A DNA stretch of 64,000 bases from a virus. Where the stretch lies: the IMG/VR virus record IMGVR_UViG_3300047323_000675. One strand, 5' to 3'. The position numbers and the translations under genes are program-made. Below are positions 17 to 62,417 of the stretch, in pieces (position 1 is the stretch's first letter; every line of letters starts with the position of its first letter). The notes beneath the pieces are model-generated. The model was not told where the DNA came from. It saw only the letters and a list, made by a program, of their open reading frames with translations, and ran no database searches.

Positions 17-538
17 ATGAGTGAAATGTTTAAGAATTCACAATTTAATGGCAATATCTCTAAATGGAATGTCTCTAAAGTAAAAAATATGAATGACATG
101 TTTCACAATTGTTCATTTAATGGAGACATTAGTAGATGGGATGTGTCAAGTGTTGAAGACATGACTAGTATGTTTTATGCTTCAGATTTTAATAGTGATA
201 TAAGTCAATGGAATGTTTGCAATGTAAAACATATGTATCATATGTTTTGTGAATCTCATTTTAATGTTGATATATCTAAATGGGATGTAAGTAATGTTGA
301 AGAAATGAGTTATATGTTTATGTACTCTAATTTTGATAAAGATTTATCCAACTGGAAGCCATTTAAAGCGGAGAAAATAATACAAATTGTGGACACAACT
401 AATGCACCAATTCCATACTGGGCTTTGATTGAAGATAAAGAAAAAAGAATAAATGCTATTAATAATTATTGGTTGAAAAAAGAATTGGATATAAATTTAG
501 ACTCTAATCTAATTTTTGACAGAAAAATGAAATTATAA
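17..538 (+). CDS. DUF285/BspA-like repeat protein (5' partial), carries C-terminal tail
   Basis: ~22-aa repeats such as ISKWNVSKVKNMNDMF; frame is open back to nt 2, so the gene starts upstream of the window; ends KKELDINL..RKMKL. Confidence 0.8.
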   Translation: MSEMFKNSQFNGNISKWNVSKVKNMNDMFHNCSFNGDISRWDVSSVEDMTSMFYASDFNSDISQWNVCNVKHMYHMFCESHFNVDISKWDVSNVEEMSYMFMYSNFDKDLSNWKPFKAEKIIQIVDTTNAPIPYWALIEDKEKRINAINNYWLKKELDINLDSNLIFDRKMKL

Positions 539-539
539 A

Positions 540-564
540 AAAAGGCACTTTATAAGTGCCTTTT
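540..564. terminator. Bidirectional intrinsic terminator
   Basis: AAAAGGCACTT-tat-AAGTGCCTTTT between convergent genes. Confidence 0.85.
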
Positions 565-579
565 TATTTACTTGTTATT

Positions 580-1017
580 TCATTTTACTACTGCTCTCCA
601 ACTATAATTTTGACCTTTGCTGAGCCAATAATCACGCATTTTTATCCAAAAGTAGATAGGTAAAATTAAAAATGAGATTCCACCGAAAATAAACAAACCA
701 ACTATATTTAATACATTGCCAGTAACTCTATTGATACCTAATAAAGTAAATAATGTATCTGAGGCTATAATAAACCAAATAAAATAAACAAACATTGAAA
801 TAATAAAAAGAATAAAGCCAATAAAAAATGTTCCAATGAATGCAGTAGTCCAACCCGATAGATGATTATGTAATGGTTCGCCTAATCCTATTATAGAACT
901 GATAACAAATAGTATTACAGCAATAAAACTAAAAACAAAAAACAATGTTGGATATAAAATTGTCCAATTAAAGTAATTCTTCCATTTATCATTTAATAGT
1001 ATTGATTGATTATCCAT
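580..1017 (-). CDS. Hypothetical membrane protein (~3 TM)
   Basis: 145-aa ORF with three long hydrophobic segments. Confidence 0.7.
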   Translation of the reverse strand: MDNQSILLNDKWKNYFNWTILYPTLFFVFSFIAVILFVISSIIGLGEPLHNHLSGWTTAFIGTFFIGFILFIISMFVYFIWFIIASDTLFTLLGINRVTGNVLNIVGLFIFGGISFLILPIYFWIKMRDYWLSKGQNYSWRAVVK

Positions 1018-1105
1018 TTAATTCATCCTTTTATTAATTATCTTTAATAATAACATAAATAATTATTTTTAAAAATTAATTTTTATGCTTAAGGAAAGAG
1101 ATGAA

Positions 1106-1133
1106 TTGTAAATCAAATTATATTATTTATAAT
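1106..1133 (+). promoter_or_regulatory. sigma70-like promoter of first ankyrin operon
   Basis: TTGTAA-N16-TATAAT, then GGAG RBS; same layout at 5186. Confidence 0.5.
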
Positions 1134-1153
1134 TAGTGAAGGAGAATAAGATT

Positions 1154-1537
1154 ATGAATGAAAAACAATATGGTGATTTAGAGAGTGATTCCGAGGAAGC
1201 ATTAAGTATTATTTTACAAACTTTATGTGTTACAGGTGATTTAGAAGCGATTAAGGAAAACTTAACTTCTAAAACTGCGAAAAATCATGGTAGTATATAT
1301 TATAATGATAATTTTCCTTTTCAATTATTGATGAATAAAAGACACCTTCATGTAATTGAATATTTAATATTTGATTATAAAATGGAAAAAACTCCAAGTT
1401 TAGAAAAATTATTAAATTTATATCAAGGTGATATGCCAAAAAAAGTTAATAATATGTTTAAAATTAGAGAGGTAAATGAATTGTCTCAAGAATTAACTAT
1501 GAATGTTGAAGAAAAAAATAAGAAGCCTAAATTATGA
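1154..1537 (+). CDS. Short ankyrin-family protein with tail
   Basis: YLIFDY C-cap, tail KNKKPKL; ATG at 1154 behind GGAG (track uses GTG 1136). Confidence 0.75.
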   Translation: MNEKQYGDLESDSEEALSIILQTLCVTGDLEAIKENLTSKTAKNHGSIYYNDNFPFQLLMNKRHLHVIEYLIFDYKMEKTPSLEKLLNLYQGDMPKKVNNMFKIREVNELSQELTMNVEEKNKKPKL

Positions 1538-2451
1538 TAGATGAAAAATTAGCAGAAAAATTTAATCAAATGTCTTTAAATGAATTATCTGATAAATTTT
1601 TAATTGAATGTAGCAGAGGTAACTTAGATAATGTTAAATATCTTTTAAGCTCTGCAAATAAAAAAGCTTTCTATTTATATCAATATATCAATGGTGGTTT
1701 TATAGAGGCTTGTAAAAATGGTCATTTTGAAATTGTAAAATTTTTAGTTATCTCAAAAGAATTAGAAACTTGTGCGGATATATCTTCAAGTGATGATTTA
1801 GCATTTCGTTATGCAGCAGCTAGAGGTCATAACGAAATTGTAAAATACCTTTTAACTTCAACTGAATTAGAAAAACATGCAAATATAAATGCTGAAGATA
1901 ATGAAGCATTTCGTATGGCTTGTCGTACTGGTAATTTAGAGCTTGTTAAATATTTATTAATCTCAACTGAATTAAAAGAACATGCCCAAATTAATGATAA
2001 TGGCAAATATGATTCTGGATTAATGTTAGCATGTCAAAAAGGTCATTTAGATGTAATAAGATATTTATTAACATCATCTGATTTAAAAAAGCATGCAAAT
2101 GTTGAGGAAGATAGCCAACGACCAATTTTTACTGCTGCTTATGAAGGTCACTTAGAAGTGGTAAAGTTTTTATTAAAATTACCTGAATTAGAGAATAATA
2201 TTAATATAGAGCAGATTAAAAAAGCTACTTTTGCTTCTGCATTAAATAATAATCAAATAAATGTTTTAAAATATTTTATTTTTGATTTAAATATTCCTAA
2301 AGATGATTATGTTGATGACTGTTTTAGAAATTGCTCTGATAGTGAAATTAAAAAAACTTTAAAGGAGTGGTTTGATATAAGAGAGTTGAGTCAAGAGCTT
2401 GATAGGGATTTAGAAAATAATCAAACCATAAATAAAAAGGTTAAATTATGA
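1534..2451 (+). CDS. Ankyrin-repeat protein with tail
   Basis: GHxEIVKYLLTS repeats, YFIFDL cap, tail NKKVKL. Confidence 0.85.
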   Translation: MIDEKLAEKFNQMSLNELSDKFLIECSRGNLDNVKYLLSSANKKAFYLYQYINGGFIEACKNGHFEIVKFLVISKELETCADISSSDDLAFRYAAARGHNEIVKYLLTSTELEKHANINAEDNEAFRMACRTGNLELVKYLLISTELKEHAQINDNGKYDSGLMLACQKGHLDVIRYLLTSSDLKKHANVEEDSQRPIFTAAYEGHLEVVKFLLKLPELENNINIEQIKKATFASALNNNQINVLKYFIFDLNIPKDDYVDDCFRNCSDSEIKKTLKEWFDIRELSQELDRDLENNQTINKKVKL

Positions 2452-3365
2452 TAGATGAAGAATTAGCCGAAAAATTTAGAAAAATGTCTGATTCTGAATG
2501 TTCTAATCAATTTATTGAAGAATGTAAGAATGGTAATTTAGACAATATTAAATATCTTTTATTTTCTGAAGATATCAAGAATTTTGATTTATCTAAATAT
2601 ATTAATGCTGGTTTTTCTGAGGCTTGTCGAAATGGGAATTTTGAAGTTATAAAGTATTTAACCACTTCATCGGATTTAAAAGAAAAATTTGATATAGCTA
2701 TAAATTATAATCTTTTATTTCGTTTAGCTGCTACTTATGGGCATAATGAAATTGTAAAATATTTATTAACATCATCAGATTTAAAAGAACATGCAAACAT
2801 ACATGCTTCAAATGAGGAAGCTTTCCGCTTAGCTTGTCGTTTTGGGCACCTATCTATTGTAAAGTATTTATTAACATCACCAGAACTTAAAGAACATGCA
2901 GAGATAAATGACAGTGGAAAAAATTATTCTGGATTAGTAATGGCTTGTCAAAAAGGTGAATTAGAAATAATAAAATATTTATTAACTTCTCCCGATTTAA
3001 AACAACATGCAAATATAAATGAAAATAATAATCTTCCAATTTCTTCTGCTGCTTATGAAGGCCAATTGGAGACAGTAAAATTTTTATTTAGTTTACTAAA
3101 ATTGAGAAACGATACAAATATAGAAGAAATAAAAAAATCCACTTTTTCTTTTGCATTAAATAACAACAAAATAGATATTTTAAAATTTTTTATTTTTGAC
3201 TTAAACATGCCTAAAGATGATTATATTAGTAATCTAATTAAATCTCATTCTAATCATGAAACAAAAAAAACTGTAAATGAATTTTTTAATATTAGAAAAT
3301 TAAACCAAGAACTTCATAAAGATTTAGAGAATAATGTATCTACAAGTAAAAAGGTTAAATTATGA
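2448..3365 (+). CDS. Ankyrin-repeat protein with tail
   Basis: Close paralog of 1534; tail SKKVKL. Confidence 0.85.
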   Translation: MIDEELAEKFRKMSDSECSNQFIEECKNGNLDNIKYLLFSEDIKNFDLSKYINAGFSEACRNGNFEVIKYLTTSSDLKEKFDIAINYNLLFRLAATYGHNEIVKYLLTSSDLKEHANIHASNEEAFRLACRFGHLSIVKYLLTSPELKEHAEINDSGKNYSGLVMACQKGELEIIKYLLTSPDLKQHANINENNNLPISSAAYEGQLETVKFLFSLLKLRNDTNIEEIKKSTFSFALNNNKIDILKFFIFDLNMPKDDYISNLIKSHSNHETKKTVNEFFNIRKLNQELHKDLENNVSTSKKVKL

Positions 3366-4294
3366 TAGATAAGGAAATCGCTGAACATTATAGAAGATTA
3401 TCTTATTATGGTATTTCAGAACAATTTTTATTAGATTGCAAAAATGGTGACTTAGATAAGGTTAGATATACTTTACTATCACCAGAAATGAAGCATATTA
3501 ATGTATTATTATCGGTTGATGATGGTTTTATTGAAGCTTGTAAAAATGGTCATTTTGAACTTGTTAAATTTTTTGCTGCATCAAAAGAATTAAAAGTAAA
3601 TGCAGATATATCTAAAGGTGATTGTGCTGGATTTCGTTTAGCCGCAGGTAACGGTTATAATGATATTGCTAAGTATCTTTTAACATCTCCTGATTTAAAG
3701 AAACATGCTGACATACATGCTTTAGATGAAGAAGCTTTTCGTTTAGCCTGTTATCATGGAAACTTACCATTAGTAAGGTATTTATTGACATCACCTGAAT
3801 TAAAAGAACATGCAAAAATTAAAGAATCAGGAAAAAATTATTCAGGATTATTGTTTGCTTGTCAGCGAGGTCAGTTAGAAATAGTAAAGTATTTATTGAC
3901 ATCAACTGAATTAGAAAAAAATGCAGATATTACTGAAAATCATGGTAGTGCATTTTATGCTGCTGCATCTAACGGACAAATAGAAGTATTGAAATATTTA
4001 CTGACTTCATCTGATGTAAAACAACATTCAGATTTAAATTTTAGGAATAGTGCTGTTTTTACTTATGCATTAGAAAATGATTATATAGATATAGTAAAAT
4101 TTTTAATTTTTGATTTAAATATTGTTAGAACCCAAACTATTGATAAGCATTTAAAAAATATGCCTAATGAAGAAGTAGAGAATTTTTTTAAAATTAGGGA
4201 CTTTAATCAAGAACTTAATAAAGAGTTAGATAATAATTTGAATCAAGAGCTTTCATGGAATGAAGAAACAACAAAAGGAAAATTAAAACTATGA
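3362..4294 (+). CDS. Ankyrin-repeat protein with tail
   Basis: Paralog of 1534/2448; duplicated NQEL in tail, ends KGKLKL. Confidence 0.85.
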   Translation: MIDKEIAEHYRRLSYYGISEQFLLDCKNGDLDKVRYTLLSPEMKHINVLLSVDDGFIEACKNGHFELVKFFAASKELKVNADISKGDCAGFRLAAGNGYNDIAKYLLTSPDLKKHADIHALDEEAFRLACYHGNLPLVRYLLTSPELKEHAKIKESGKNYSGLLFACQRGQLEIVKYLLTSTELEKNADITENHGSAFYAAASNGQIEVLKYLLTSSDVKQHSDLNFRNSAVFTYALENDYIDIVKFLIFDLNIVRTQTIDKHLKNMPNEEVENFFKIRDFNQELNKELDNNLNQELSWNEETTKGKLKL

Positions 4295-4450
4295 TAGATA
4301 AATAAAAGGTAAATTAATAATTTTCAATTGTATTCCCTTTATAATTAATACAGTTATTTTATTTTATCTTATACTATTGAATTCAAATGTATATATATTG
4401 TTATTTAGTTTTTAATAGATATAATAGTCATAATTAAAAAATAAATATTT

Positions 4451-5149
4451 ATGGAAAATTTAGAGTTATATAACAAATATAATGGTTGCTCATCCAATAC
4501 TTTAACAAGCGAATTAATTAGTCTATGTGAGCAAGGTAATCTAGAAGCTGTAAAATATGTTTTAACTTCTAAAGATTTAGAGCATCATGCAAAGATAGAA
4601 TCCTATGATTATGCTGCATTACACAATGCTTGTGAGCATGGACATTTAGATATTGTCAAATATCTACTTACCTCACCTGATTTAAAAGAAAAAGCAAATA
4701 TTAATGCTCATACTGGTCATAGTAGTGTTTTAAGTGCAGCTTGTAGAAGTGGAAATTTAGCACTTGTTAGTTATTTATTAGCCTCACCTGATTTAAAAGA
4801 ACATATTAATATTCATACTGATAAAGATGCAGCAATGCAATGGGCAATTATTGGTGATGATATAGAATTAGTAAAACATTTGCTATTTTCTCCTGAATTA
4901 AAAGAACATATAAAAATTCATGACAACTATGATAAAGCATTTGAAACAGCTTTAAGAGCCAATAAACAAGATATATTGCATTATTTTATTTTCGATTTAA
5001 ATATTGAAAAGACAGAAGATATTGATGGTTACTTATATGAGTTTGGAAAATGGGATGTAAAGGATATGTTTAAAAAGCGCGAATTAAAAGAAGACTTAGA
5101 TAACGAACTTTCTGTTAAGAATAATCAAATTAAACCAAATAAGATTTGA
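4451..5149 (+). CDS. Ankyrin-repeat protein with tail
   Basis: GHLDIVKYLLTSPDLKE repeats; tail IKPNKI. Confidence 0.85.
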   Translation: MENLELYNKYNGCSSNTLTSELISLCEQGNLEAVKYVLTSKDLEHHAKIESYDYAALHNACEHGHLDIVKYLLTSPDLKEKANINAHTGHSSVLSAACRSGNLALVSYLLASPDLKEHINIHTDKDAAMQWAIIGDDIELVKHLLFSPELKEHIKIHDNYDKAFETALRANKQDILHYFIFDLNIEKTEDIDGYLYEFGKWDVKDMFKKRELKEDLDNELSVKNNQIKPNKI

Positions 5150-5160
5150 TCTTTAAGATT

Positions 5161-5182
5161 AAACGGCAATAAGCCGTTTTTT
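5161..5182 (+). terminator. Intrinsic terminator
   Basis: AAACGGC-aataa-GCCGTTT plus T tract. Confidence 0.75.
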
Positions 5183-5185
5183 ATT

Positions 5186-5213
5186 TTGTAAATCAATAAA
5201 TCTTATTTATAAT
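5186..5213 (+). promoter_or_regulatory. sigma70-like promoter of the long ankyrin operon
   Basis: TTGTAA-N16-TATAAT, similar to 1106-1133. Confidence 0.5.
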
Positions 5214-5242
5214 AATGATAAGAAAGATACAAGGTATAAATT

Positions 5243-5647
5243 ATGTGGGGTGAATATTATAATTCTAAACAAAATGAAGAGCCTTTTTCAGATTATGCTA
5301 ATGCTGATCAAAAACAACTGAATGGTTTTTTAAAAGTTATGTGTATCTATGAATCATTACCACATATAAAATATTTATTAGAATCACCTTTATTAAGAAT
5401 ACATGCTGATTTCCATGCTGATAATGATGAAGCATTTAAATGTTTACAGAATTGTGATTTAAAAATAATTAAATACTTAATTTTTGATTATGGGCTTAAA
5501 ACTAATGAAAACATAGAGAAAATCTTAGATAATTCTGATACTGATTTTGCGATGGCAGTAAGAAATATGTTTAAGCTCAGAGATTATCAAGTATTAAATA
5601 CGGAATTACCTGCTAATGAAATTAAAGTTAAAAAGAATAAGGTATAA
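5243..5647 (+). CDS. Short ankyrin-family protein with tail
   Basis: IKYLLESPLLRIHADFHA unit, YLIFDY cap, tail VKKNKV. Confidence 0.75.
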   Translation: MWGEYYNSKQNEEPFSDYANADQKQLNGFLKVMCIYESLPHIKYLLESPLLRIHADFHADNDEAFKCLQNCDLKIIKYLIFDYGLKTNENIEKILDNSDTDFAMAVRNMFKLRDYQVLNTELPANEIKVKKNKV

Positions 5648-6031
5648 ATGATGAGTAAATATGGTGTAGGCTATAACACACTAACACAAGAAGAATTAAA
5701 CGAGATGTTTAGTAGAATGTGTTTTTATGAAGACTTTAATGAAGTTAAATATATATTAACTTCACCAGATATAAAGCTTCGTCCTAACTTAAATTTTAAA
5801 CTTGATGAACCATTTGCATTTTTATTAGAAGATAAAAATTTAGAAATATTACAATATTTAATAATTGAACATAATATGGAAAAGACAAAAAATATTGTTG
5901 AAATAATGCAAAAGAATGAAAGTGAATTTATTCAGCAAGTAGAAGAATTATTTAACATAAGAGATTTAAAATGTTCATTAGATAACGAGTTAGTTAAAAA
6001 TGATGGTAATGTTAGGAAGGCTAAAATATGA
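5648..6031 (+). CDS. Short ankyrin-family protein with tail
   Basis: VKYILTSPD unit; tail VRKAKI. Confidence 0.75.
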   Translation: MMSKYGVGYNTLTQEELNEMFSRMCFYEDFNEVKYILTSPDIKLRPNLNFKLDEPFAFLLEDKNLEILQYLIIEHNMEKTKNIVEIMQKNESEFIQQVEELFNIRDLKCSLDNELVKNDGNVRKAKI

Positions 6032-6717
6032 ATGATCCTTTTTTATATGAACAATATAAAAATCTAAATAAAGAGCAATTAACAGAAGAATTAATTGAAG
6101 CATGTAGGAAGGGTGATTTGGATGTGGTTAAATATTTATTGAATTCAAAGGATTTAATTGAGCATGCAGATATAAATGGATTTATAAGCTCTCCATTGCT
6201 GTGTGCTTGTGAATATGGGCATTTAGAAGTAGTAAAGTATTTGTTAACATCTAACGAACTACAAGAACATGCTACAATTAATAATTTATTTAATCCATTG
6301 ATTCCAGCTTGCAGGGATGGTCATTTAGATATTGTAAAATATTTACTGATATCTCCTGAATTAAAAAACCAAATAGATATCCATGTTCAAAATGATGCTC
6401 CTTTTGCTTGGGCATGTATAAGAGGTCATTTAAATGTTATTAAATATTTATTAACCTCGCCTGAATTAGAAGAACATATAGAACTTCATTCCCATAATGA
6501 TACAGGTTTTAAATCAGCCATACAAGGTAATCAATTAGAAGTGATTCGTTATTTTATCTTTGATTTAAATATGGAAAAGAGTGCATGTGTACAGCAATAT
6601 TTAAAAGAAAATCCTAATGAAGATATAGATAAAATGTTTGAAATGAGAAGTTTAAATAAATCTTTAAGTCATGAGCTTATTTCTCATGAAAATGAATTTA
6701 GGAAACATAAATTATGA
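6028..6717 (+). CDS. Ankyrin-repeat protein with tail
   Basis: GHLEVVKYLLTS repeats; tail FRKHKL. Confidence 0.85.
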   Translation: MNDPFLYEQYKNLNKEQLTEELIEACRKGDLDVVKYLLNSKDLIEHADINGFISSPLLCACEYGHLEVVKYLLTSNELQEHATINNLFNPLIPACRDGHLDIVKYLLISPELKNQIDIHVQNDAPFAWACIRGHLNVIKYLLTSPELEEHIELHSHNDTGFKSAIQGNQLEVIRYFIFDLNMEKSACVQQYLKENPNEDIDKMFEMRSLNKSLSHELISHENEFRKHKL

Positions 6718-7286
6718 GGAATCCTATTTTATATGAAAAATTTAAAAATGAAGATATAGATGATGCTTTTATTGATGCATGCCAGGATGGTAATTTTGAA
6801 GAAGTAAAATATTTGTTAAATTCTCATGATTTAGTAAAAAATGCTGATATTCATGCATATGATGATTTAGGATTTAGAAAAGCTTGTGCTAGGGGACATC
6901 TTGATATAGCTAGATATTTATTAACATCACCTGAGTTAGAGGAACATGCAGATATGAATGCATGTGAGAATGAATCTTTAAAAGTAAATTCAACAAATGG
7001 AAATTTATATAGTGTTAAATTTATGACTTCTCCTGAGTTCAAAGATAAGCTTAAGTTAGATGGTGTATTAGAATTCTTTTTTAAGTATGTTAATCAGAAA
7101 AATGTACATGTTGCTCATTATTTTATCTTTGATTTAAATATTGAAAGAACAGAAAGTATTAACAAAATTTTAAAAGATTATCCTGATAGTAAATTAGAGA
7201 AAGCATTTGCTTTAAGAGATTTGAATAAAGAATTAAATACAGAATTAAGTATTAATAAAGAAATCCCAAAGAAGGTTAAGATATGA
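6714..7286 (+). CDS. Ankyrin-repeat protein with tail
   Basis: GHLDIARYLLTSPELEEHA; tail PKKVKI. Confidence 0.8.
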   Translation: MRNPILYEKFKNEDIDDAFIDACQDGNFEEVKYLLNSHDLVKNADIHAYDDLGFRKACARGHLDIARYLLTSPELEEHADMNACENESLKVNSTNGNLYSVKFMTSPEFKDKLKLDGVLEFFFKYVNQKNVHVAHYFIFDLNIERTESINKILKDYPDSKLEKAFALRDLNKELNTELSINKEIPKKVKI

Positions 7287-7783
7287 TTAATTATTACGAA
7301 GAATTTAAAGGCTTAAAGAAAGATGAGTTAATTCTTAGGTTAAATGAGAGTTTATTAGATGCATGCACACATGGTGATTTAGATAAGATTAAATATATTT
7401 TAACTTCTCCAGAATTGGAGTATCATGGTGATATCCATTATAAGAAGGATTCTCCACTTTCTTTGGCTGTTTTTTCAAGGAAACTTGAAATTGTGAAATA
7501 TTTATTATCATCACCTGATTTAAAAGAACATGCGAATTTACATGCCGATGGTGATAATGCTTTTTTATGTGCAGCTTATTATAATCATTCCGATATAGTC
7601 AATTATTTTATTTTTGATTTTAAAATTGAAAAAAGTACATCTATTGTAAAAGATCTAGCAGATACACCAAATATAGAGCAAAAAATAAACAAATTGTTTG
7701 AAATAAGAGATTTAAATCAAGAAATAAATGCAGAGCTTACAGAAAAAGATAATAAAGAAAAGCAAAAGAAGGCTAAATTATGA
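7283..7783 (+). CDS. Ankyrin-repeat protein with tail
   Basis: GDLDKIKYILTSPE; tail QKKAKL. Confidence 0.8.
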   Translation: MINYYEEFKGLKKDELILRLNESLLDACTHGDLDKIKYILTSPELEYHGDIHYKKDSPLSLAVFSRKLEIVKYLLSSPDLKEHANLHADGDNAFLCAAYYNHSDIVNYFIFDFKIEKSTSIVKDLADTPNIEQKINKLFEIRDLNQEINAELTEKDNKEKQKKAKL

Positions 7784-8622
7784 GTAATTTTACTAATGAA
7801 GAAATTTTTAAGGAATTAGAAGGAAGGACTTTATCCGGCTTTCTTAAAGAATTATGTCTTAAAAATGATTTTGACAAGTTCAAATACATTTTTGAATCAG
7901 ATATGTTGGAAGAACATTTTGGAATAAGGAAAAGTGAACATTTAAGCGATACTTTGGAAGAGATAGAAAGAATTATATTAGATTCGGATTTAATAAAAAA
8001 ATGTTGTGAAGTAGATGCTGTAGAAATATTGGAATATATCTTAGCTTATTGTTATGGTTCAAATGCATTTCATTTAGAAGATTTACAATCTCAAATTGAT
8101 GATGCTGTATCAGTATGTTGCCGTTATGGATCATTAAAATCTCTAGACTATATTTTGAATTCAGAAAAAATTACAATTAATGGAAAAATTGAAGGTGATT
8201 ATCTATTTATGTATGCTTTTGAAAATAATCATTTAGATGTAGTTGAATATTTACTGAATTCTCCCAAAGCAGAAAATATAAAAAATGAATCAATTAAAAG
8301 TGGTCAATTATTAAAAAATGCATGTGCATATGGTAACTTAGATGCAATTAAATTTGTTTTTAATGCACCACAATTAAAAGATAAAATAGACATTCATGTT
8401 AATAAAGATGATTGCTTTAGAATATTAGCAAGACAGAACAAAGAAGAGATACTTAATTATTTTATATTTGAATTAGAATTAAATCGAACAAAATATATTG
8501 ATAATTATTTAAAAGTGAACCAAAGAAAAGATATAGATTCAATGTTTGAAGCAAGAGACTTACAAAAAGAACTTAATAACGAACTAAAAGATAATAAAAG
8601 TGAAAAAAAACCTAAAATATGA
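7780..8622 (+). CDS. Divergent ankyrin-repeat protein with tail
   Basis: NHLDVVEYLL, GNLDAIKFV; YFIFEL cap; tail EKKPKI. Confidence 0.8.
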   Translation: MSNFTNEEIFKELEGRTLSGFLKELCLKNDFDKFKYIFESDMLEEHFGIRKSEHLSDTLEEIERIILDSDLIKKCCEVDAVEILEYILAYCYGSNAFHLEDLQSQIDDAVSVCCRYGSLKSLDYILNSEKITINGKIEGDYLFMYAFENNHLDVVEYLLNSPKAENIKNESIKSGQLLKNACAYGNLDAIKFVFNAPQLKDKIDIHVNKDDCFRILARQNKEEILNYFIFELELNRTKYIDNYLKVNQRKDIDSMFEARDLQKELNNELKDNKSEKKPKI

Positions 8623-9044
8623 TTCATCCTACTATAAATAAAGAAAATAAAACACCTGAAGAAATAGCTCAAGAGGAAGTAGATTTATATTTTATCAGGA
8701 TGTGTTATTCCTGTGATTTTGAGCATATAAAATACTTATTGACCTCACCTGAATTACAAAGACATGCAAATGTTCATGCACAGAATGATAAAGGATTTGC
8801 AAATATTCTAGATGATTTACTAGAAGCAAGAATTCAAAATTGTTCTGATAGAACAACTGAGATTATGCAATATTTAATTTTTGATTTTAATATTGAAAAA
8901 ACAAAAGATATTGAAAAAATTTTAATTAGCAGAGGTGAATTAGGTGTAAAATATTTAAAAATGTTTGAACAGCGTGAACTAAATAATATATTAAAATCTG
9001 AATTAATAGAAAATAATGATAACCCCAAAAAAACTAAAATATGA
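8619..9044 (+). CDS. Short ankyrin-family protein with tail
   Basis: HIKYLLTSPELQRHANVHA; tail PKKTKI. Confidence 0.75.
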   Translation: MIHPTINKENKTPEEIAQEEVDLYFIRMCYSCDFEHIKYLLTSPELQRHANVHAQNDKGFANILDDLLEARIQNCSDRTTEIMQYLIFDFNIEKTKDIEKILISRGELGVKYLKMFEQRELNNILKSELIENNDNPKKTKI

Positions 9045-9451
9045 GTATAAAAAATAGTGATTATTCAAAATATAAAAATGCCACACAAAAAGAATTAGAT
9101 AAGGCATTTCTCCATAGTTGTATCTATACAAAATTTGATCATATAAAATATTTACTAACTTCACCAGAATTAAAAAGACATGCAAATGTGCATACAAATG
9201 AAGACTTAGGTTTTGCTCATCTTATGGGAAACAAAGAAAAAGCTAGAGATATTATTACATATCTTATATTTGATTTTAATATTGAAAAAACTTCAACTAT
9301 TGAAGAGATATTAGAGTATGAAATGGACTCATTAGAATTAATAAATTTAACTAAAGATATAAAAAGAATGTTTGAACAAAGAGAATTAAATCAAGAATTA
9401 GATTCTATATTAGTAAAAAATGATAAACATTTTAAAAAGATAAAGATATGA
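9041..9451 (+). CDS. Short ankyrin-family protein with tail
   Basis: Close paralog of 8619; tail FKKIKI. Confidence 0.75.
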   Translation: MSIKNSDYSKYKNATQKELDKAFLHSCIYTKFDHIKYLLTSPELKRHANVHTNEDLGFAHLMGNKEKARDIITYLIFDFNIEKTSTIEEILEYEMDSLELINLTKDIKRMFEQRELNQELDSILVKNDKHFKKIKI

Positions 9452-13101: not shown

Positions 13102-13105
13102 AAAT

Positions 13106-16026: not shown

Positions 16027-16041
16027 AAAACAAATAAAAAT

Positions 16042-47327: not shown

Positions 47328-47329
47328 TA

Positions 47330-49141: not shown

Positions 49142-49168
49142 AAAAAGACCAAACGAATTGGTCTTTTT
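49142..49168. terminator. Intrinsic terminator at end of HRxDGPA array
   Basis: AAAAAGACCAA-acgaa-TTGGTCTTTTT. Confidence 0.8.
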
Positions 49169-49751: not shown

Positions 49752-49779
49752 AATATTAAATAAAAAATTATACCATAAT

Positions 49780-50775: not shown

Positions 50776-50776
50776 T

Positions 50777-51226: not shown

Positions 51227-51234
51227 AATAATCC

Positions 51235-53956: not shown

Positions 53957-55666
53957 ATGTCAGAACCAACACAATTTACCAATCAAGAAATATTAAATAG
54001 TACTTTATTATCAAGTATGGCTTATTTAGAAGATAGACTGATTCGTCATGGTGATACTCTTCAAAGAAGAACTATGTCAAAATTGGATATAATTACTTTT
54101 TTAAATGAAAATAAAATTTCTAAAGAAAGTATTAAAACTATTGAAGATTTTGATAAATGTGTGGATAAATGCCTTCAGAAAGTAATGTCCAATCCATCAT
54201 TTAAAAACATTGTTGCTCAGAAAACAGAATTTTATAGAAGTTTTCAAGAAGAGTTTGGTATTGTTGAGAACACTAATAAAACTGTTATCACTAAAATTGC
54301 TAGAAAAGATTCTATTTGGGAACTTAAAAAAATTGTTACCGAGAATTTAATTAAAGAATTAAAGCTTTTTGATATTAAATTTATTGATTATAGAAACAAT
54401 TTAGAAAAGCGAATAATCAAATCAGTTGTAAGTGGTAATGAAGAAAAAAGGATGATGTATAGAGATGTGAAGAATTTATGGGAAAAATTTTCACCAATAG
54501 ACTTTTCATTAGAACTACAAAAAAAGTATAAACTTTATGACCCAAAGAATGACAGCAATATTAAAGCTACCTTTTATAATGGCTATATAGATGCTGGTCA
54601 AGGAGGAAAGAAATATAAGGATGCTTCTTTACTTATGGGATATGTTAAAGAAAAAAATGAAGATGTTTTATATATCTCTTTTCGTGGAACTGAACAAAAA
54701 GTTAAATCTGCATTTAGATATTTTTTAGAAAATTATCCGAATATGGAAAGGCAGTATAATTATTTTGAACCAATTATTAAAGATGTTTTAAAAGAAGAGA
54801 TTAAGAAATATAAATTATCACATCCTAATAAAAAGTTAAAAGTTATTTTTACTGGACATAGTTTAGGGGCAGCACTAGCTGAGAAATCACTCGATAAATT
54901 TCATGATGATGAAAATACATCATTTAAGGGAATTTTTGTTTCAAATCCTGGTTCATTTCACTATGTTCAAAATATGGTGAATAAATTAGACCAAATTGAT
55001 TGCGATTTAGATAAAATAAAGAATTCCAATATAAAAAATGGTAAAACTAAATTTTTATCACTTGGAGCTACTGCAATGAAAAAAGCAATAAAAGTTGTAA
55101 AAATAGCAGTATTGGGAATAGTTGGAACTACAAGTTATATGGTAGGTGCTGTGGATATAAAAATAAAACAAATGAGCATAAAAGATGTAAATAGAGCAGA
55201 ATTATTTGCTGATATGTTTGAGCTTTCAACTCTATATACTGCAAAGATGTTAAATGTTGGATTCAGAGGTGCTTTTTCTAGTATAAGTTGGCTAATTAAA
55301 AAAGCAGTTTCTCCTGTGATTGATAAAAAAAGTGCAGATCCTAGAGCTTGCACTATTAATCATGAACAAGACAATATACCACATATAGGTAAAGCATTAT
55401 TCCAGAACCACAATCCACAAAGTGTTATATTAAATAGTCCATTACCAATTGAAGAAAATAAAAATATTGTCGCCAAAATTTTCCAAATTGATTATCATGG
55501 GCGTGAGGTTTACTATACTGAATTAAAGCGTAAATCGTTAGAAGGTGATTTATATAAACCGAAAGGAAGTACAGAAAAAGCACCTATAGTTGACAAGATT
55601 AAGAAACTGAGAGAGAATCTGGCAACTAATAAAGCAAAAGAGAAAACTAATGGTAAGAAAATATGA
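53957..55666 (+). CDS. Class 3 lipase (alpha/beta hydrolase) with N-terminal extension
   Basis: ISFRGTE lid motif, IFTGHSLGAAL nucleophile elbow, candidate Asp (HEQDNIP) and His (DYHG); ends NGKKI. Confidence 0.8.
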   Translation: MSEPTQFTNQEILNSTLLSSMAYLEDRLIRHGDTLQRRTMSKLDIITFLNENKISKESIKTIEDFDKCVDKCLQKVMSNPSFKNIVAQKTEFYRSFQEEFGIVENTNKTVITKIARKDSIWELKKIVTENLIKELKLFDIKFIDYRNNLEKRIIKSVVSGNEEKRMMYRDVKNLWEKFSPIDFSLELQKKYKLYDPKNDSNIKATFYNGYIDAGQGGKKYKDASLLMGYVKEKNEDVLYISFRGTEQKVKSAFRYFLENYPNMERQYNYFEPIIKDVLKEEIKKYKLSHPNKKLKVIFTGHSLGAALAEKSLDKFHDDENTSFKGIFVSNPGSFHYVQNMVNKLDQIDCDLDKIKNSNIKNGKTKFLSLGATAMKKAIKVVKIAVLGIVGTTSYMVGAVDIKIKQMSIKDVNRAELFADMFELSTLYTAKMLNVGFRGAFSSISWLIKKAVSPVIDKKSADPRACTINHEQDNIPHIGKALFQNHNPQSVILNSPLPIEENKNIVAKIFQIDYHGREVYYTELKRKSLEGDLYKPKGSTEKAPIVDKIKKLRENLATNKAKEKTNGKKI

Positions 55667-56379: not shown

Positions 56380-57021
56380 TCATAATTTCAATTTCTTTTT
56401 ACTAGAATTATTTATATCTAATTCTTTTTGTAGCATTGAATAATTAAATTCTTGTTCGGTGATTTTTTTTCCATCTAACCACCATTCTTTTCTACCATCT
56501 CTATAAACTACAGCAGGACCATCTTCACGATGTATTTTTCCATCAACTGCCCATGTTTGTTTGTCTTTTCCTACAGTAGCAGGTTTTCCGCCATCTCTAT
56601 GATGTAACCCATTTTTGTACCATTTCATAGCACCATTAGCTTTTATAGTAGCAGGTAAATCACCATCTCTATGCAAGACTCCATTTTTATACCATTGTTT
56701 AACTTTTGGGTTAATCACAGCAGGTAAGTCTCCATCTCTATGAAGTTTTCCATGTACATACCACTCTTGCATTAAACTTGATAATTGTCTTGCTGGAAGG
56801 CCATTATCCCTATGTTTAACTCCATTAAGCCACCATTCTTTTAAACCATGTGTGTATACTTTTGCAGGAAGATCTCCGTCACGATGGTACTTCCCATTGA
56901 TAGCCCACTTTTTATTTCCATGAGCTAGTTCTACCGCAGGGCCATCTTCACGATGAAGTTGGCCATTAACTTTCCAATACTTATTTCCTTTAACATCTAT
57001 TTCTGTAGGTTCCATGCTCAT
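56380..57021 (-). CDS. HRxDGPA repeat protein with tail
   Basis: LHRDGDLPA repeats; tail KKKLKL. Confidence 0.85.
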   Translation of the reverse strand: MSMEPTEIDVKGNKYWKVNGQLHREDGPAVELAHGNKKWAINGKYHRDGDLPAKVYTHGLKEWWLNGVKHRDNGLPARQLSSLMQEWYVHGKLHRDGDLPAVINPKVKQWYKNGVLHRDGDLPATIKANGAMKWYKNGLHHRDGGKPATVGKDKQTWAVDGKIHREDGPAVVYRDGRKEWWLDGKKITEQEFNYSMLQKELDINNSSKKKLKL

Positions 57022-57668
57022 AATTTTAATTTTCTATTTAATTTTTCAGAATTAATTTCTAAAACTTGTTCTAGTTTATAATGATTTACCTCTTGTTCTG
57101 AGCTAACTTTTCCATGAAGCCACCACTCTATTCCACCATCAGACCAAATTACTGCTGGTCCATCTTCTCTATGATATTCATCATTTAGTGCCCAAACTGT
57201 TTTAGTCTTTCCAACGAATGCAGGCTTTCCACCATCACGATGTAATTTACCATTTTTATACCATTTTTGACTACCTTTATGAGTAATACTAGCAGCCTGA
57301 TCATTATCTCTATGTAATAATCCGTGTTTGTACCATTTTTGATCGCCTTTTTTATTAATTGATGCAGGTAAATCTGTCTCTCTATGCAGTTGACCATTTT
57401 GGTACCATTCTTTTCTCCCATTATGTGAAACTATAGCGGGTAAATCACTATCTCTATGAAGTAAACCATTCTTATACCATTCTTGATGACCATCTTTGAA
57501 ATTAATAGCTGGCTCATCATTATATGAATGCAATTCCCCATTTTTATAATAATACTCTACATAACTAGAGATTACTGCTGGACCATCTTCACGATGAAGT
57601 TTGCCATCTACTTTCCAACATTTATTTCCTTTCGCATCTATCTCTGTAGGATTTGAATCATCTCTCAT
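57018..57668 (-). CDS. HRxDGPA repeat protein with tail
   Basis: LHREDGPA repeats; tail NRKLKL. Confidence 0.85.
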   Translation of the reverse strand: MRDDSNPTEIDAKGNKCWKVDGKLHREDGPAVISSYVEYYYKNGELHSYNDEPAINFKDGHQEWYKNGLLHRDSDLPAIVSHNGRKEWYQNGQLHRETDLPASINKKGDQKWYKHGLLHRDNDQAASITHKGSQKWYKNGKLHRDGGKPAFVGKTKTVWALNDEYHREDGPAVIWSDGGIEWWLHGKVSSEQEVNHYKLEQVLEINSEKLNRKLKL

Positions 57669-57680
57669 AACTATTCACTC

Positions 57681-58259
57681 TTATATTTTCAATTTCTTTT
57701 TATTATTATCATTTATGCATAATTCTTTTGCTAATTCATTATTAAATTTTAAAATTTTTATTTCTTCTTCATTAAGTTTTACACCATTGATCCACCACTC
57801 TTCATATGCTCCACTGATGACCGCTGGTCCATCAAATCTATGTTTATTTCCGTTAATATACCAAGCTTGATATGGGTGTTTATTGTCAGGTTCAACAACA
57901 GCCGGGCCATCTTCACGATGCAACAATCCATGCTGCATCCACTTCTCATTACCATATTTATCTTTAATAGCTGGACCATCTTCACGATGGGGAACTCCAT
58001 AAGTATACCAAGATTCTTTTCCGTTTTCTATAATAGCTGGTCCATTAATACGATGTAGTTCTCCCTCAAAATACCATTTTTGGTATTCATTTCCATTAAT
58101 GACAGCCGGACCATCTATTCTATGTCTTTTTCCATATTTAAACCATTGTTCTGTTCCGTCAAGATCAATAGTAGCTGGTCCATCTTCTCTATGAAATTTA
58201 TCATCAAGTAACCATATTTGACGATTAAATCGATCTAAGCTTTTTATTGGCTGATTCAT
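57681..58259 (-). CDS. HRxDGPA repeat protein with tail
   Basis: HRIDGPA repeats; tail KKKLKI. Confidence 0.85.
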   Translation of the reverse strand: MNQPIKSLDRFNRQIWLLDDKFHREDGPATIDLDGTEQWFKYGKRHRIDGPAVINGNEYQKWYFEGELHRINGPAIIENGKESWYTYGVPHREDGPAIKDKYGNEKWMQHGLLHREDGPAVVEPDNKHPYQAWYINGNKHRFDGPAVISGAYEEWWINGVKLNEEEIKILKFNNELAKELCINDNNKKKLKI

Positions 58260-58627
58260 ATTTTTAATTTTTTTGTACCTTTTTCATTAAAGGTTAACTC
58301 TTTTTGTAATATAATAAAATTAAATTCTTGTTCGGAATATTTAACACCATCAATCCACCATTCTTTTAAATTTAATCCATTTACCTCATCTTCTACAGCA
58401 GGACCATCTTCTCTATGAGCTTTTCCATGTTTAAACCAAACTTTTTTACCGCAATGTGTTTCCATCGCGGGACCATCATCTCTATGTTGTAATCCATTTA
58501 TATACCACACTTTAGTTCCTGATTTTGCTTCAATTGCAGGACCATTTTCTCTATGAAGCTTTCCATCAACTTCCCAAAATTTACATCCGTCAGAATCAAT
58601 TCTTGTAGGTTTATCATTGTTATTCAT
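58256..58627 (-). CDS. HRxDGPA repeat protein with tail
   Basis: LHRENGPA repeats; tail TKKLKI. Confidence 0.85.
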   Translation of the reverse strand: MNNNDKPTRIDSDGCKFWEVDGKLHRENGPAIEAKSGTKVWYINGLQHRDDGPAMETHCGKKVWFKHGKAHREDGPAVEDEVNGLNLKEWWIDGVKYSEQEFNFIILQKELTFNEKGTKKLKI

Positions 58628-59292
58628 AATTTAATTTTCTTCTTAGTAAATTCATCGTTCACGGATAGCTTGTTTCTTAATTCTTCATTTAGTTTTATTG
58701 CATTAAATTCTTTTTCTGATAGTTGTTTACCATTTAACCACCATTCATTTTCACCATTTGTTCGTATAACTGCTGGCCCATTATCTCTATGAAATTCACC
58801 TTCAACAACCCATGCTATATATTTATCTTTTTTATAAATTGCAGGTTTGGTTATATCAGGATTATGAATTTTATCATCGGTGTACCATTGATATGAACCA
58901 TCAGGATATTCTTCAGCCGGTCCATCTACACGATGTTTTTTACCATTTATATACCATATTTTAATGCCATTAGCTTTGAGATTTGAAGCTTCAATAGCTG
59001 GTCCATCATCTCTATGTAGAACTCCATATTTATACCATCTTTCGCTTCCATTAGAATCAATACTTGCAGGATCATTATCCCTATGTAATTTACCATCTTG
59101 ATACCAATGCATTTCACCATTTACATCAATAATTGCAGGTTGATCATTATCTCTATGAATTTTATCATTTTTAAACCATATTTCTTTGCCGTTTGCTTCA
59201 ATTACGGCAGGCCCATCTTCACGGTGAAGTTTACCATCTACTTCCCATAATTGGCTACCATTTTCATCAATATTTGTAGGTCTTGAACTCAT
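58624..59292 (-). CDS. HRxDGPA repeat protein with tail
   Basis: LHREDGPA repeats; tail KKKIKL. Confidence 0.85.
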   Translation of the reverse strand: MSSRPTNIDENGSQLWEVDGKLHREDGPAVIEANGKEIWFKNDKIHRDNDQPAIIDVNGEMHWYQDGKLHRDNDPASIDSNGSERWYKYGVLHRDDGPAIEASNLKANGIKIWYINGKKHRVDGPAEEYPDGSYQWYTDDKIHNPDITKPAIYKKDKYIAWVVEGEFHRDNGPAVIRTNGENEWWLNGKQLSEKEFNAIKLNEELRNKLSVNDEFTKKKIKL

Positions 59293-59416
59293 ATTTATAA
59301 TTTAAATATACTGTTTAAATTATAAAAAAATTATGATTAAAAAACAAATAAATATAGATAATTACTTATAAAATTATTTATTTTTAAAGAAAATTATGGT
59401 AAATCAAAAGAAATAG

Positions 59417-59609
59417 ATGATATACAAACTATTTTAATTGGCAGGCATGCAAACAGACTAATGATCAAAAATACTACAGCTTTGAACAAGAAATTTTTAG
59501 AAAAGCCTGGAATAGTGGAACTATTTATAAACAAAACAATATTATAAATTATGATCCAATCGATCATATAGTATTATCTAATGAACAGATTAAAAATGTA
59601 AATTTATAG
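59417..59609 (+). pseudogene. Possible frameshifted small gene
   Basis: ATG frame stops at codon 7; removing one T from CTATTTTAAT gives a continuous 63-aa ORF followed by a hairpin and T tract. Confidence 0.25.
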
Positions 59610-59669
59610 AGCCTACATTGAGTCGGCTTTATTTTTTTGTATAATAAAGATAATTATATTGGAGTATCA

Positions 59670-61037
59670 ATGAAATTATATACATTTGAAGAATTAGAGA
59701 AATTTACAAAAAAAGATATTAAAAATATCTTAACAGAGCGTGCTAAGATGTGTGGATCTTTATTAAATGATGCTCTCATTGGAAAAACTATAGAATCAGA
59801 AGGAAATGATGAAGAAGAAGAACCATTAAATTTCAAAATAAAAGAAATTATTTATCATCCTAGTAAAGAATTATCAATCAACGAAAAATTTATAGCCATA
59901 CCAGTAAACATCTATTTAGAAGATTATAATTGCACAACTAAAGCAGAAATTATATATGAAAATGAAACAACAGATTTTTCAATAAAAGATTTATTGCAAG
60001 AACAGATAATTAAAGGAACTAGATTTAGTTGGCGAGCAAAAAGGCTTCAGGGTTTAGATTATATTAATATAGAAATATTAATTCCTAATGCATTAATTAA
60101 TCCTGATATTAAAATATTTAATGAATATAATGATTTCATTACAACAAATCAAAAAGTAAGTTCAGTTAAAAAAATAAAACACAGAAAAGAATTAGAAAAA
60201 AAATTAGCTTTAGAAATAGAGGAGTTAAAATATCAAAAATTTAATATAGTAAAGGAATCTGGTTCGTATGTGCCTGAAGATAAAGAAGAATTAATGCAAT
60301 TTATTCATCATGCTAATCGAGTCTCTTTTGATAAACAAGCATTGGTTGAAGTTATGAAGAAATATTCAGATAATAAAGAAATAGTCGAAGCTATATTAGC
60401 AGGTTTTTATGAAGATATTTTCAAGTATGCATCAAATAGATTAAAAAACGATAGGGATTTTATAGAGTCATGTCTTGATAAAAAAATAGTCACTATCATG
60501 GAATATGTATGTGATAAATTTAAAGATGATGATGTATTAATACATAAAGCTGTTACAGTAAATGGTTCAGTTATTGAACATGCATCAGAAAGATTAAAAG
60601 ATGATAAAAATATCGCTCTAATTGCTGTCGGAAACAATCTAAGTGGGGATAGTGCTTATTTTAGTATTTCTGAGAATTTAAAAAAAGATAAAGATATTAT
60701 ATTAAAATTGGTTGAAACTAGAGGAGATTTTTTTGCAGTTTGTCCTGAAGTAGAAACCAATAAGGAACTGTTAATTAAAGCGTTTTCTACCGCATTTGAT
60801 CGTCAAAGCAGCAATTTATTAAGAAATACTAGTGAAGAATTAAGAAATGATAAAGAAGTTGCTTTAGCTGCAATAAAATGTAACCCTGATAACATTTATC
60901 ATATCGGTGAAAAATTAAAAAAAGAAATTGGTAGTTTTGATCCTTATACATATTTAAGTAGAATAGATTTATACAATGAAATAAATGAAGAAGTTATTAA
61001 TCATGAAGTTAGCCCAAAAAGAAAAATGAAAATGTAA
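59670..61037 (+). CDS. DUF4116-repeat protein with large N-terminal domain and tail
   Basis: KYASNRLKNDRDF, EHASERLKDDKNIAL, ELRNDKEVALAAI; ends KRKMKM; GGAG RBS before 59670. Confidence 0.8.
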   Translation: MKLYTFEELEKFTKKDIKNILTERAKMCGSLLNDALIGKTIESEGNDEEEEPLNFKIKEIIYHPSKELSINEKFIAIPVNIYLEDYNCTTKAEIIYENETTDFSIKDLLQEQIIKGTRFSWRAKRLQGLDYINIEILIPNALINPDIKIFNEYNDFITTNQKVSSVKKIKHRKELEKKLALEIEELKYQKFNIVKESGSYVPEDKEELMQFIHHANRVSFDKQALVEVMKKYSDNKEIVEAILAGFYEDIFKYASNRLKNDRDFIESCLDKKIVTIMEYVCDKFKDDDVLIHKAVTVNGSVIEHASERLKDDKNIALIAVGNNLSGDSAYFSISENLKKDKDIILKLVETRGDFFAVCPEVETNKELLIKAFSTAFDRQSSNLLRNTSEELRNDKEVALAAIKCNPDNIYHIGEKLKKEIGSFDPYTYLSRIDLYNEINEEVINHEVSPKRKMKM

Positions 61038-61046
61038 GGAATAAAT

Positions 61047-62417
61047 ATGAAATTATATACAATATCAGAATTAGAAAAATTATCATCAGATGAAATTATT
61101 GAGATTATTAATAGCCGTTACAAGCTATTCACCAAACTAACTAATGATGCAATTATTGGTAAAAAAGTAGAAACAATTGGCAGTAAAGCTAAAGAGATCA
61201 ACGGAAGACAGGAAAAAAGATCTTTCCCTATAAAAAACATTGAATATTTAGAGAATAAAAATCCACTTTTTGGTCAAGATGTTGCGATAATTCCAATCAA
61301 TATAATTCTAGATGGATATGATAGTAAAAGTAAAAATGGAACTCTTTATCATGATCATTTAACAACCAGTTCAATAAGTAATTTATTGCAAAAAAAAATA
61401 GAGAAAGACATAACAATTCATTGGAGTGCTAAAAAATTACAAGGACAAAATCATGTTAGTTTTGATTTATTATTCCCAATCAAGTTGATTGCTCCTGATA
61501 TAATTGCATATATAGATTATAATCCCGATTGGAATTCTAAAAAAATAATATCAAAAATAATAGATAATGAAAAAAAACAAAAATTAGAAAATAAATTATT
61601 AAAAGAAATTGAAGAAATTCAAAATAATAAATTTAATTTAATCAAGGAAAAACATGCATATGTTCCTGACAATAAAGAAGAATTAATGGAATTTATTCAA
61701 AAATATTCAAAAATATATGATAAAGATGCTTTAAATGAAGTAGTTAAAAAATATCCTGATAACAAAGAAATAGTATTAGCTGCAATAGGTCTTTTTAATG
61801 ATGAAGTTTTTAAATATGCATCAGATAAACTAAAAGATGATAGAGAATTTGTTAATTATTGTATTGAAAATCATAAAGGTAACATACTTGAATTTGCATC
61901 AGAAAGACTAAGAGATGATGAATCATTACTGCTAAAAGCAATTAAATCGGTCGGTGGTCAAATAATGAGAGCAGCATCAGATAGATTAAAAAATGATAAA
62001 AATATTGCGTTGATTGCAATTCAAAGTCAAGCAATGGCTTACACACACATTTCAGAAAATTTAAAAACGGATGAGGAAGTTATATCTATATTAATAGAGC
62101 AAAAGCCTGATTTTTTCAAACCACCTCCGATTATTCGAAATAACAAAGAACTTTTAATTAAAGCATTTAAAAATGCTTATCCTGACAGTAGCAATTTACT
62201 TTTAGAATATACTAGTGATGAACTTAAAAATGATACTCAAGTGGCTTTAGCTGCAATTGAATGTTCTCCAAGAAATATTGAATATATTGGTCAAAAATTA
62301 AAAGATGAAATTGGTGATTTTGAACCTTTTGCTTATTTAAAAAATATTGACTTATATAAAGAAATGCATAATGAAATGACAAATGACAATAGTAGTAAAA
62401 GAAAGCCAAAGATGTAA
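61047..62417 (+). CDS. DUF4116-repeat protein with large N-terminal domain and tail (paralog)
   Basis: KYASDKLKDDREFV, ELKNDTQVALAAI; ends KRKPKM. Confidence 0.8.
   Translation: MKLYTISELEKLSSDEIIEIINSRYKLFTKLTNDAIIGKKVETIGSKAKEINGRQEKRSFPIKNIEYLENKNPLFGQDVAIIPINIILDGYDSKSKNGTLYHDHLTTSSISNLLQKKIEKDITIHWSAKKLQGQNHVSFDLLFPIKLIAPDIIAYIDYNPDWNSKKIISKIIDNEKKQKLENKLLKEIEEIQNNKFNLIKEKHAYVPDNKEELMEFIQKYSKIYDKDALNEVVKKYPDNKEIVLAAIGLFNDEVFKYASDKLKDDREFVNYCIENHKGNILEFASERLRDDESLLLKAIKSVGGQIMRAASDRLKNDKNIALIAIQSQAMAYTHISENLKTDEEVISILIEQKPDFFKPPPIIRNNKELLIKAFKNAYPDSSNLLLEYTSDELKNDTQVALAAIECSPRNIEYIGQKLKDEIGDFEPFAYLKNIDLYKEMHNEMTNDNSSKRKPKM

Follow-up and report, generated by a model that had tools for sequence, protein, structure and literature searches.

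In Legionella, the secretion signal occupies the final ~30 residues and needs acidic residues on a helix 11 to 18 residues from the end (PMC3096851), and the optimal Dot/Icm signal of Lifshitz et al., as quoted in PMC5802825, ends in ..SSLKL, with an exchange of the last Leu for Glu abolishing transport. Type IV effectors typically have at least three His, Arg, or Lys residues among their last 25 residues, together with hydrophilic C-termini (PMC3814349). Predicted effectors organized in tandem, diversified families are described for "Candidatus Ichthyocystis," an intracellular betaproteobacterium with a genome of ~2.3 to 2.6 Mb, in which these families account for up to one third (PMC4943182). 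Here we describe a 64-kb stretch of DNA (64,000 nucleotides of IMG/VR record IMGVR_UViG_3300047323_000675; the window below) in which about 50 genes, belonging to six or more unrelated families, share a C-terminal tail of ~30 residues, referred to as the tag. The window has a GC content of 24 to 31% and consists of long tandem arrays of short genes, in which an ATGA overlap with the next start is common; no tRNA was found in it, and no Rfam family was matched. Literature searches recovered no earlier description of the tag.

A first-pass annotation of the window had proposed that ~52 proteins of unrelated families carry a common C-terminal tag, and this is confirmed by both the enrichment of the motif and its anchoring to the protein end. 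Among 84 gene-like open reading frames (ORFs; non-overlapping, at least 90 aa, chosen by greedy selection), 53 end in K-[LIVM], and 49 of these 53 have at least two further K/R residues at positions -8 to -3, counting back from the last residue as -1. Composition predicts such an ending in 2.6% of ORFs (pK 0.103 x pLIVM 0.25), and only 3 of 160 wrong-frame ORFs in the same DNA have it, so that the tag is far more frequent than chance or AT-rich termini would allow. Of the 84 ORFs, 41 terminate in the strict form [KR][KR]xK[LIVM], which is found internally just 7 times at 20,048 positions. Outside the window, 80 further proteobacterial loci with 1,404 ORFs of at least 150 aa yielded 10 K[LIVM] ends and no strict-form tail. 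The shared tail is therefore non-random, and the counts by family also matched those first given: 34 of 36 array ankyrin genes, 11 of 11 genes with HRxDGPA repeats, two DUF4116 genes, one DUF285 gene, and the genes at 37964-38488, 43383-44435, and 44522-45562. Two borderline cases should be mentioned: 22756-23229 ends in GAIKL with neither basic run nor helix and is not to be counted as tagged, and 29492-29911 has the tail followed by one extra Pro.

The anatomy of the tail was compiled from 52 tagged proteins, with 31 untagged ones for comparison. In all 52, position -1 is L, I, V, or M and position -2 is K, while position -3 is free (L in 13, N in 7, I in 7, V in 6, P in 5, and others). K or R occupies -4 in 46 tails and -5 in 46. 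A linker rich in Asn, Ser, Thr, and Lys spans -6 to -12, and upstream of it Leu is the commonest residue at -13 (28/52), -17 (28/52), and -21 (23/52), a periodicity that bears out the amphipathic L-x-x-E-L helix proposed for this region. Acidic residues are commonest at -14 and -22, N stands at -20 in 23 tails, and F at -26 in 22. Mean charge is +3.2 over the last eight residues and -1.2 over -9 to -25. An AlphaFold2 (AF2) model of the ankyrin protein encoded at 6028-6717, built with an alignment of 48 sequences, reached a predicted local distance difference test score (pLDDT) of 93.7 and has one long terminal helix at residues 198 to 223. The first half of this helix packs on the ankyrin cap (pLDDT > 90), and its end and the basic tip lose confidence, down to a pLDDT of ~53 for the last ~9 residues; as modeled, the protein thus has a protruding terminal helix with a flexible tip. 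A single-sequence model of one MORN-like protein was poor (pLDDT 49) and was not relied on.

The tail is under position-specific selection. A syntenic array in a related species (L085; 28% GC) provides 18 tagged orthologue pairs with 47 to 71% identity, covering the second part of the ankyrin array and neighboring tagged genes, and across these pairs identity is 58% in the protein body, 62% in the helix, 27% in the linker, 72% at -4/-5, 22% at -3, and 83% at -1/-2. The helix and positions -5, -4, -2, and -1 are kept; the linker and -3 vary freely. The proposal that the tag is portable and sits on interchangeable, unrelated scaffolds is supported by the orphan family of 43383 and 44522, all 8 known members of which carry it, and by two further comparisons. 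A hidden Markov model built from ankyrin tails only finds the MORN-like tails among the 84 ORFs, end-anchored, with E values down to 1e-4. Close homologues of the DUF4116 proteins (37 to 64% identity) end in K-[MI] in 8 of 8 cases, whereas distant DUF4116 proteins from Salmonella, E. coli, Providencia, Mycoplasmopsis, and others have a K[LIVM] end in 4 of 111, which is the chance rate. Within the window the tag is absent from housekeeping-type proteins, as had been claimed, and also from Sec-signal and membrane proteins; a signal-peptide-like or transmembrane-like segment occurs in 0 of 53 tagged proteins but in 2 and 3, respectively, of the 31 untagged ones.

Beyond the window, ENA, JGI, Logan, and NCBI supplied 120 ankyrin homologues, of which 114 have a K[LIVM] end. 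A 36-position profile of the tail, searched against 1.84 billion proteins, recovered 80 proteins at E < 1e-3; 79 of these matches are end-anchored, and all 79 are ankyrin or MORN-like proteins. As a specificity control, the profile had no matches in 802 sampled GTDB genomes (401 from the class of a Vibrio genome and 401 from the order of a Burkholderiales metagenome-assembled genome). In two other lineages, homologous scaffolds carry another ending: in L094 (94-8549; 41% GC) and L095 (1830-7571; 44% GC), ankyrin homologues lie among ankyrin and non-ankyrin genes that end in E-x-E-[LIV]-Y-L, for example, EEQELYL, EQEQELYL, and YQEQEIYL. The uniform tags look like lineage-specific dialects, and different uniform endings on homologous scaffolds are what would be expected of a signal that co-evolves with its reader. 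The tag itself was also found at 36% GC, in a 130-kb contig of a relative (L083; ENA ERZ15185050), where positions 801-20200 form an island with a tagged ankyrin gene and several small tagged non-ankyrin ORFs. This island has a phage-type integrase at its start, a VapE/DUF5906 primase inside, and umuDC downstream; since tagged ORFs lie in an integrase/VapE island, the tag also appears to travel on mobile DNA. A TraI-like helicase (AAA_30, TraI_hel_assoc_N) lies next door to the L094 genes.

We read the tail as a lineage-specific export (translocation) tag that would be recognized at the free C-terminus and is most like type IV secretion signals, a reading to which we assign a probability of about 0.5. 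It is the simplest one because the carriers are soluble, lack Sec signals, and belong to effector-type families, and because the free-end tail is the only feature they have in common. The tag would have three elements: an amphipathic helix in which Leu recurs at about -13, -17, and -21 beside acidic residues, a freely variable Asn/Ser/Thr-rich linker of ~7 residues, and a basic tip, [KR]-K-x-K-[LIVM], required at the free carboxyl end. It would be displayed on soluble, signal-peptide-less scaffolds of the kind that interact with eukaryotes (ankyrin, MORN-like, DUF285, DUF4116, and orphan proteins), and a cytoplasmic receptor of a non-Sec secretion system would read it and pass the proteins into a eukaryotic host cell. 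We infer both this export function and the identity of the machine that reads the tag, for which the coupling complex of a type IV system would be the likeliest candidate. Some general features of type IV effectors are present: at least three H/R/K residues in the last 25 with a hydrophilic C-terminus were found in 52 of 52 tagged proteins and in 23 of 31 untagged ones. The E-block of Dot/Icm signals is EEXXE or three to six acidic residues within 6 to 10 residues, starting 11 to 18 residues from the end; a relaxed form of it, at least three acidic residues in a 10-residue window between -10 and -28, occurs in 36 of 52 tagged and 11 of 31 untagged proteins, these residues being spaced along the helix without forming a block.

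Several observations weigh against this reading. No secretion system was seen within the window. None of the 52 tails contains the strict E-block EEXXE, and no more than 21 reach a net charge of at least +2 over their last 25 residues, owing to the acidic helix. A hydrophobic residue or Pro at -3/-4, present in 34/52 tagged and 19/31 untagged proteins, does not discriminate between the two groups. Known type IV signals are degenerate and this tag is stereotyped, and its K-K-x-K also fits a minimal nuclear-import consensus. Only the ~15 last residues are clearly free in the model, because the first half of the helix belongs to the ankyrin fold. The lipase, which the first-pass annotation listed as a carrier, does end in K-I, but its tail (..TNGKKI) is atypical, and its orthologues in four related loci (L088, L090, L091, and L092; 44 to 64% identity) end in EPKT, NKIR, NNLK, and GLEI; its tag is doubtful because the tail is not conserved in these four orthologues with a readable C-terminus. 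Of the original proposal of a type IV export signal, then, the portable, lineage-specific, and selected character of the tag stands, and the E-block and charge hallmarks do not.

If the tail were instead a nonfunctional by-product, it would stem from AT bias, from the ribosome-binding site of a coupled next gene, or from descent within a single family. In its favor, an ATGA overlap with the following start codon joins 34 of the 52 tagged genes to their neighbors, Lys is encoded by AAG in 30% of cases in the tails compared with 15% in gene bodies, and an AAGG/AGGA-type element lies in 12 of the 34 ATGA junctions. However, a Shine-Dalgarno-like element is missing from the other 22 coupled junctions and from all 18 uncoupled genes, yet 12 of these 18 have the strict motif, and several uncoupled tagged genes stand directly 5' of terminator hairpins. 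AT bias does not account for the tag because it is present at 36% GC in L083, on ankyrin and non-ankyrin ORFs alike, and neither bias nor common descent fits with its rarity in wrong-frame ORFs (3/160), its presence on at least six unrelated families, and its absence from distant DUF4116 proteins. We give the by-product explanation next to no credence, and its combination of ribosome-binding site and composition was rejected on the Shine-Dalgarno counts, the wrong-frame ORFs, and the 36%-GC relative. Recent copying of a DNA cassette between families was likewise rejected, given that cross-family DNA identity over the last 60 nucleotides is at most 73% (mean 46%, versus 32% for gene bodies). 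As a separate matter, the tail codons in the ankyrin arrays (1136-22625) seem to have been partly co-opted as a ribosome-binding site, with AAG doubled and AAGG/AGGA placed inside the K-K codons.

The remaining alternatives accept a function and differ in where the tag would be read. It could act in the host as a sorting motif after delivery by another signal, as a monopartite nuclear localization signal (NLS) or a polybasic membrane or organelle anchor. The monopartite consensus K-[KR]-x-[KR] fits the last six residues of 33 of 52 tails, the tip is flexible and exposed in the AF2 model, and other intracellular bacteria provide known cases of ankyrin effectors entering the nucleus. An NLS, though, works anywhere in a protein and needs no free C-terminus, terminal hydrophobic residue, or upstream helix, whereas this motif is strictly terminal (41 terminal versus 7 internal) and needs its hydrophobic last residue; host sorting would also leave the conserved helix unexplained, and one compartment for DUF285, MORN-like, and hundreds of ankyrin proteins is hard to see, so we hold it to be unlikely, if deserving of serious attention. 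Two specific host signals were rejected: the peroxisomal targeting signal PTS1, [SAC][KRH][LM], fits 1 of 52 tails, with -3 unconstrained between orthologues, and the dilysine endoplasmic reticulum retrieval signals KKXX and KXKXX fit 0 of 52 each. Export by a system other than type IV, such as a type I ATP-binding cassette (ABC) exporter or an undescribed route, is an option to which we attach low weight. Type I signals are uncleaved and C-terminal with an amphipathic helix, and a stand-alone C39-like peptidase gene lies in the window (38559-39017; E 4e-9); on the other side, published type I signals are not Lys-rich, and a Pfam scan of ten tagged representatives detected neither RTX nor Gly-rich repeats. 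The tag might finally be handled on the bacterial side, as a ClpX-type C-terminal degron (as in MuA, ..RRKKAI) or a chaperone dock that controls paralogue levels. A free C-terminus with basic residues and then a hydrophobic one in last place is reminiscent of ClpX C-motif 2, and a need for the free end would suit a protease or adaptor. It is hard to see, however, why such a mark would be confined to eukaryote-interaction-type families and spare every housekeeping protein, and different uniform dialects on homologous arrays suit a specialized, co-evolving reader better than the conserved ClpX; we consider the chances of this explanation slim.

The features of the window are listed in Table 1.

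Table 1. Tagged and untagged features along the window (coordinates, strand, feature, and basis or C-terminus)
17..538	+	DUF285 (BspA-like repeat) protein, tagged; cut by window start	PF03382, E 2e-35; ends ..YWLKKELDINLDSNLIFDRKMKL
1136..12772	+	Ankyrin array part 1, 19 tandem genes, tagged	ATGA overlap with the following start in most; every tail is helix + linker + [KR]KxK[LIV]
12769..13468	+	Two short untagged array fragments	12769-13101 ends ..MFNNPERN; 13106-13468 ends ..KRDLIK
13471..22625	+	Ankyrin array part 2, 12 tandem genes, all tagged	ORF tails
23808..24506	+	Canonical ankyrin protein, weaker tag	Ank_2, E 1e-26; ends ..DLPTNESKTSNKLKV
29492..31320	+	29492-29911 (KKLKKIKP end), then tagged ankyrin genes 29908-30489 and 30832-31320	ORF tails
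35257..36180	+	Signal-peptide-like ankyrin protein, untagged	C-terminus; signal-peptide check
36439..36918	+	Membrane protein, untagged	C-terminus
36950..37906	+	TrxB, untagged	C-terminus
37964..38488	+	Orphan protein, tagged; no Pfam match	Ends ..VNELEKELPKSNTKKKNTKRKI; terminator-like hairpin 3'
41390..41986	+	LuxI, untagged	PF00765 (Autoind_synth, E 2e-37)
41976..42671	-	LuxR, untagged	PF03472 + PF00196 (Autoind_bind + GerE)
43383..45562	+	Two orphan-family paralogues, tagged, 43383-44435 and 44522-45562	End ..PRKITKL and ..STKVQKI
45891..49054	-	DUF2201_N/VWA-type protein and AAA ATPase, untagged	C-termini
49167..53020	-	Six tandem MORN-like (HRxDGPA repeat) genes, tagged	All end ..EQEFNxIKLNxEL..N..KKKxK[LIV]
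53957..55666	+	Lipase_3 protein, doubtful tag	PF01764, E 7e-7; ends ..KIKKLRENLATNKAKEKTNGKKI
56380..59292	-	Five further tandem MORN-like genes, all tagged	ORF tails
59637..62417	+	Two DUF4116 proteins, tagged, 59637-61037 and 61047-62417	PF13475, E 1e-29 and 1e-34; end ..KRKMKM and ..KRKPKM

Among the tagged genes, the DUF285 gene is uncoupled from its downstream neighbor, as an intrinsic-terminator-like hairpin lies directly 3' of it, and DUF285-like neighbors with the same tail are present in relatives (L091). The two untagged genes of the ankyrin array are truncated copies; in the sister species, 12769-13101 has an orthologue (L085 9654-10004; 65% identity) that continues to ..MFNNRDINKVKPKI (..NKVKPKI). 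The HRxDGPA proteins had no Pfam match, and in the Atlas their structure matches MORN_2/YwqK-type beta-hairpin repeats with a TM score of ~0.8. The orphan family of 43383 and 44522 is lineage-restricted, with 8 homologues among 5.8 billion proteins, all 8 of which end in K-hydrophobic-x-K-hydrophobic; neither member had a Pfam match above the gathering score (44522-45562 has one sub-threshold Nipped-B_C match), and the Atlas held no usable fold for the family. In DUF4116, both window paralogues and their five nearest relatives (44 to 64% identity) end in Met (..KRKxKM), and the two most distant of the close relatives end in Ile; ..KRKxKM is a tip variant specific to this family.

The untagged proteins named in the first-pass annotation held up for TrxB, LuxI/LuxR, the ATP-grasp protein, and the signal-peptide ankyrin protein, all of which lack the tail, but its "radical SAM" label gained no support: the large proteins at 24554-28222 and 31321-32439 had no Pfam match at E <= 0.001. 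The R2K ATP-grasp protein, the C39-like peptidase, and membrane proteins are also untagged. The peptidase gene encodes a C39-type domain of 152 aa (PF03412) with no ABC transporter attached and adjoins a tagged orphan gene. luxI and luxR form a convergent, overlapping pair inside the effector island of a presumably host-associated bacterium. Between the arrays, the pair 22756-23229 and 23313-23753 has 77% and 64% identity in the sister species, above that of the surrounding ankyrin genes, and no Pfam family was found for either gene.

The window is part of a single contig of 2,230,803 bp, with sister contigs of 2.217 to 2.224 Mb in many JGI samples, and no relatives of it were found in plasmid and viral collections. 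The organism is an uncultured, very AT-rich proteobacterium; LuxI/LuxR, ATGA coupling, and terminator hairpins mark the DNA as bacterial. TrxB has <=64% identity to beta- and gammaproteobacterial sequences and falls on a long, unplaced branch. There are weak hints that the organism may be betaproteobacterial, the L083 UmuC being nearest to those of betaproteobacterial plasmids (<=62% identity). The gene context of homologues contains more arrays, an orphan IF-3, the integrase/VapE island, and the TraI-like helicase, and no secretion apparatus.

Should the tail prove to be an export tag, one short profile would be enough to catalogue all effectors of an uncultured intracellular bacterium, and the tag would be a compact, transferable delivery signal as well as a test case for the co-evolution of secretion signals and their receptors. 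A uniform peptide of 30 residues and three elements would make its reader tractable by pull-downs, by co-evolution analysis against the second dialect, and by reporter assays, which is much harder with the degenerate Legionella signals. More tentatively, and less likely than not in our view, the tag might be one dialect of a wider, undescribed code in which protist- or animal-associated bacteria label their whole effector arsenals with a short, uniform, lineage-specific C-terminal peptide that co-evolves with its reader; the reader here could be a receptor for which C-terminus binding has yet to be described, or the tag could double as a host sorting signal.

We file the tag as one that works like a type IV signal and not as a member of either known class, because it fails on defining points. 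"Candidatus Ichthyocystis" shares with this organism a reduced genome and tandem, duplicated and diversified gene families, but its families are others (IchFam1-25) and PMC4943182 describes no common C-terminal tag for them. The XVIPCD of the VirD4-interacting X-Tfe effectors of Xanthomonadales is, like the tag, a conserved C-terminal module on unrelated effectors of one lineage; it is, however, a folded domain of ~120 residues on antibacterial toxins, compared with ~30 residues and a flexible tip on eukaryote-interaction scaffolds here. VirB/D4 (type IVA) substrates such as Agrobacterium VirF/VirE2 and the Bartonella Bep proteins have the hydrophilic, basic C-terminal tail seen in 52 of 52 tagged proteins, and their signals resemble the tag in being uncleaved and transferable, whereas the tag is based on Lys and not Arg, has fixed spacing to the end and an obligatory hydrophobic last residue, and comes with no BID-like domain. 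Compared with the Dot/Icm (type IVB) signals of Legionella and Coxiella, the tag lacks a contiguous Glu block, has a strongly basic K-K-x-K tip, and is stereotyped, and the weak hints on its organism point to a betaproteobacterium. What the two share is a location within the final ~30 residues, a helix with acidic residues 11 to 25 residues from the end, a polar linker, and a K-L-type free end, with the hydrophobic last residue of the Dot/Icm signal found in all 52 tails; and Dot/Icm signals, too, are carried by unrelated, often ankyrin-type effectors without Sec signals, in their case by hundreds of them.

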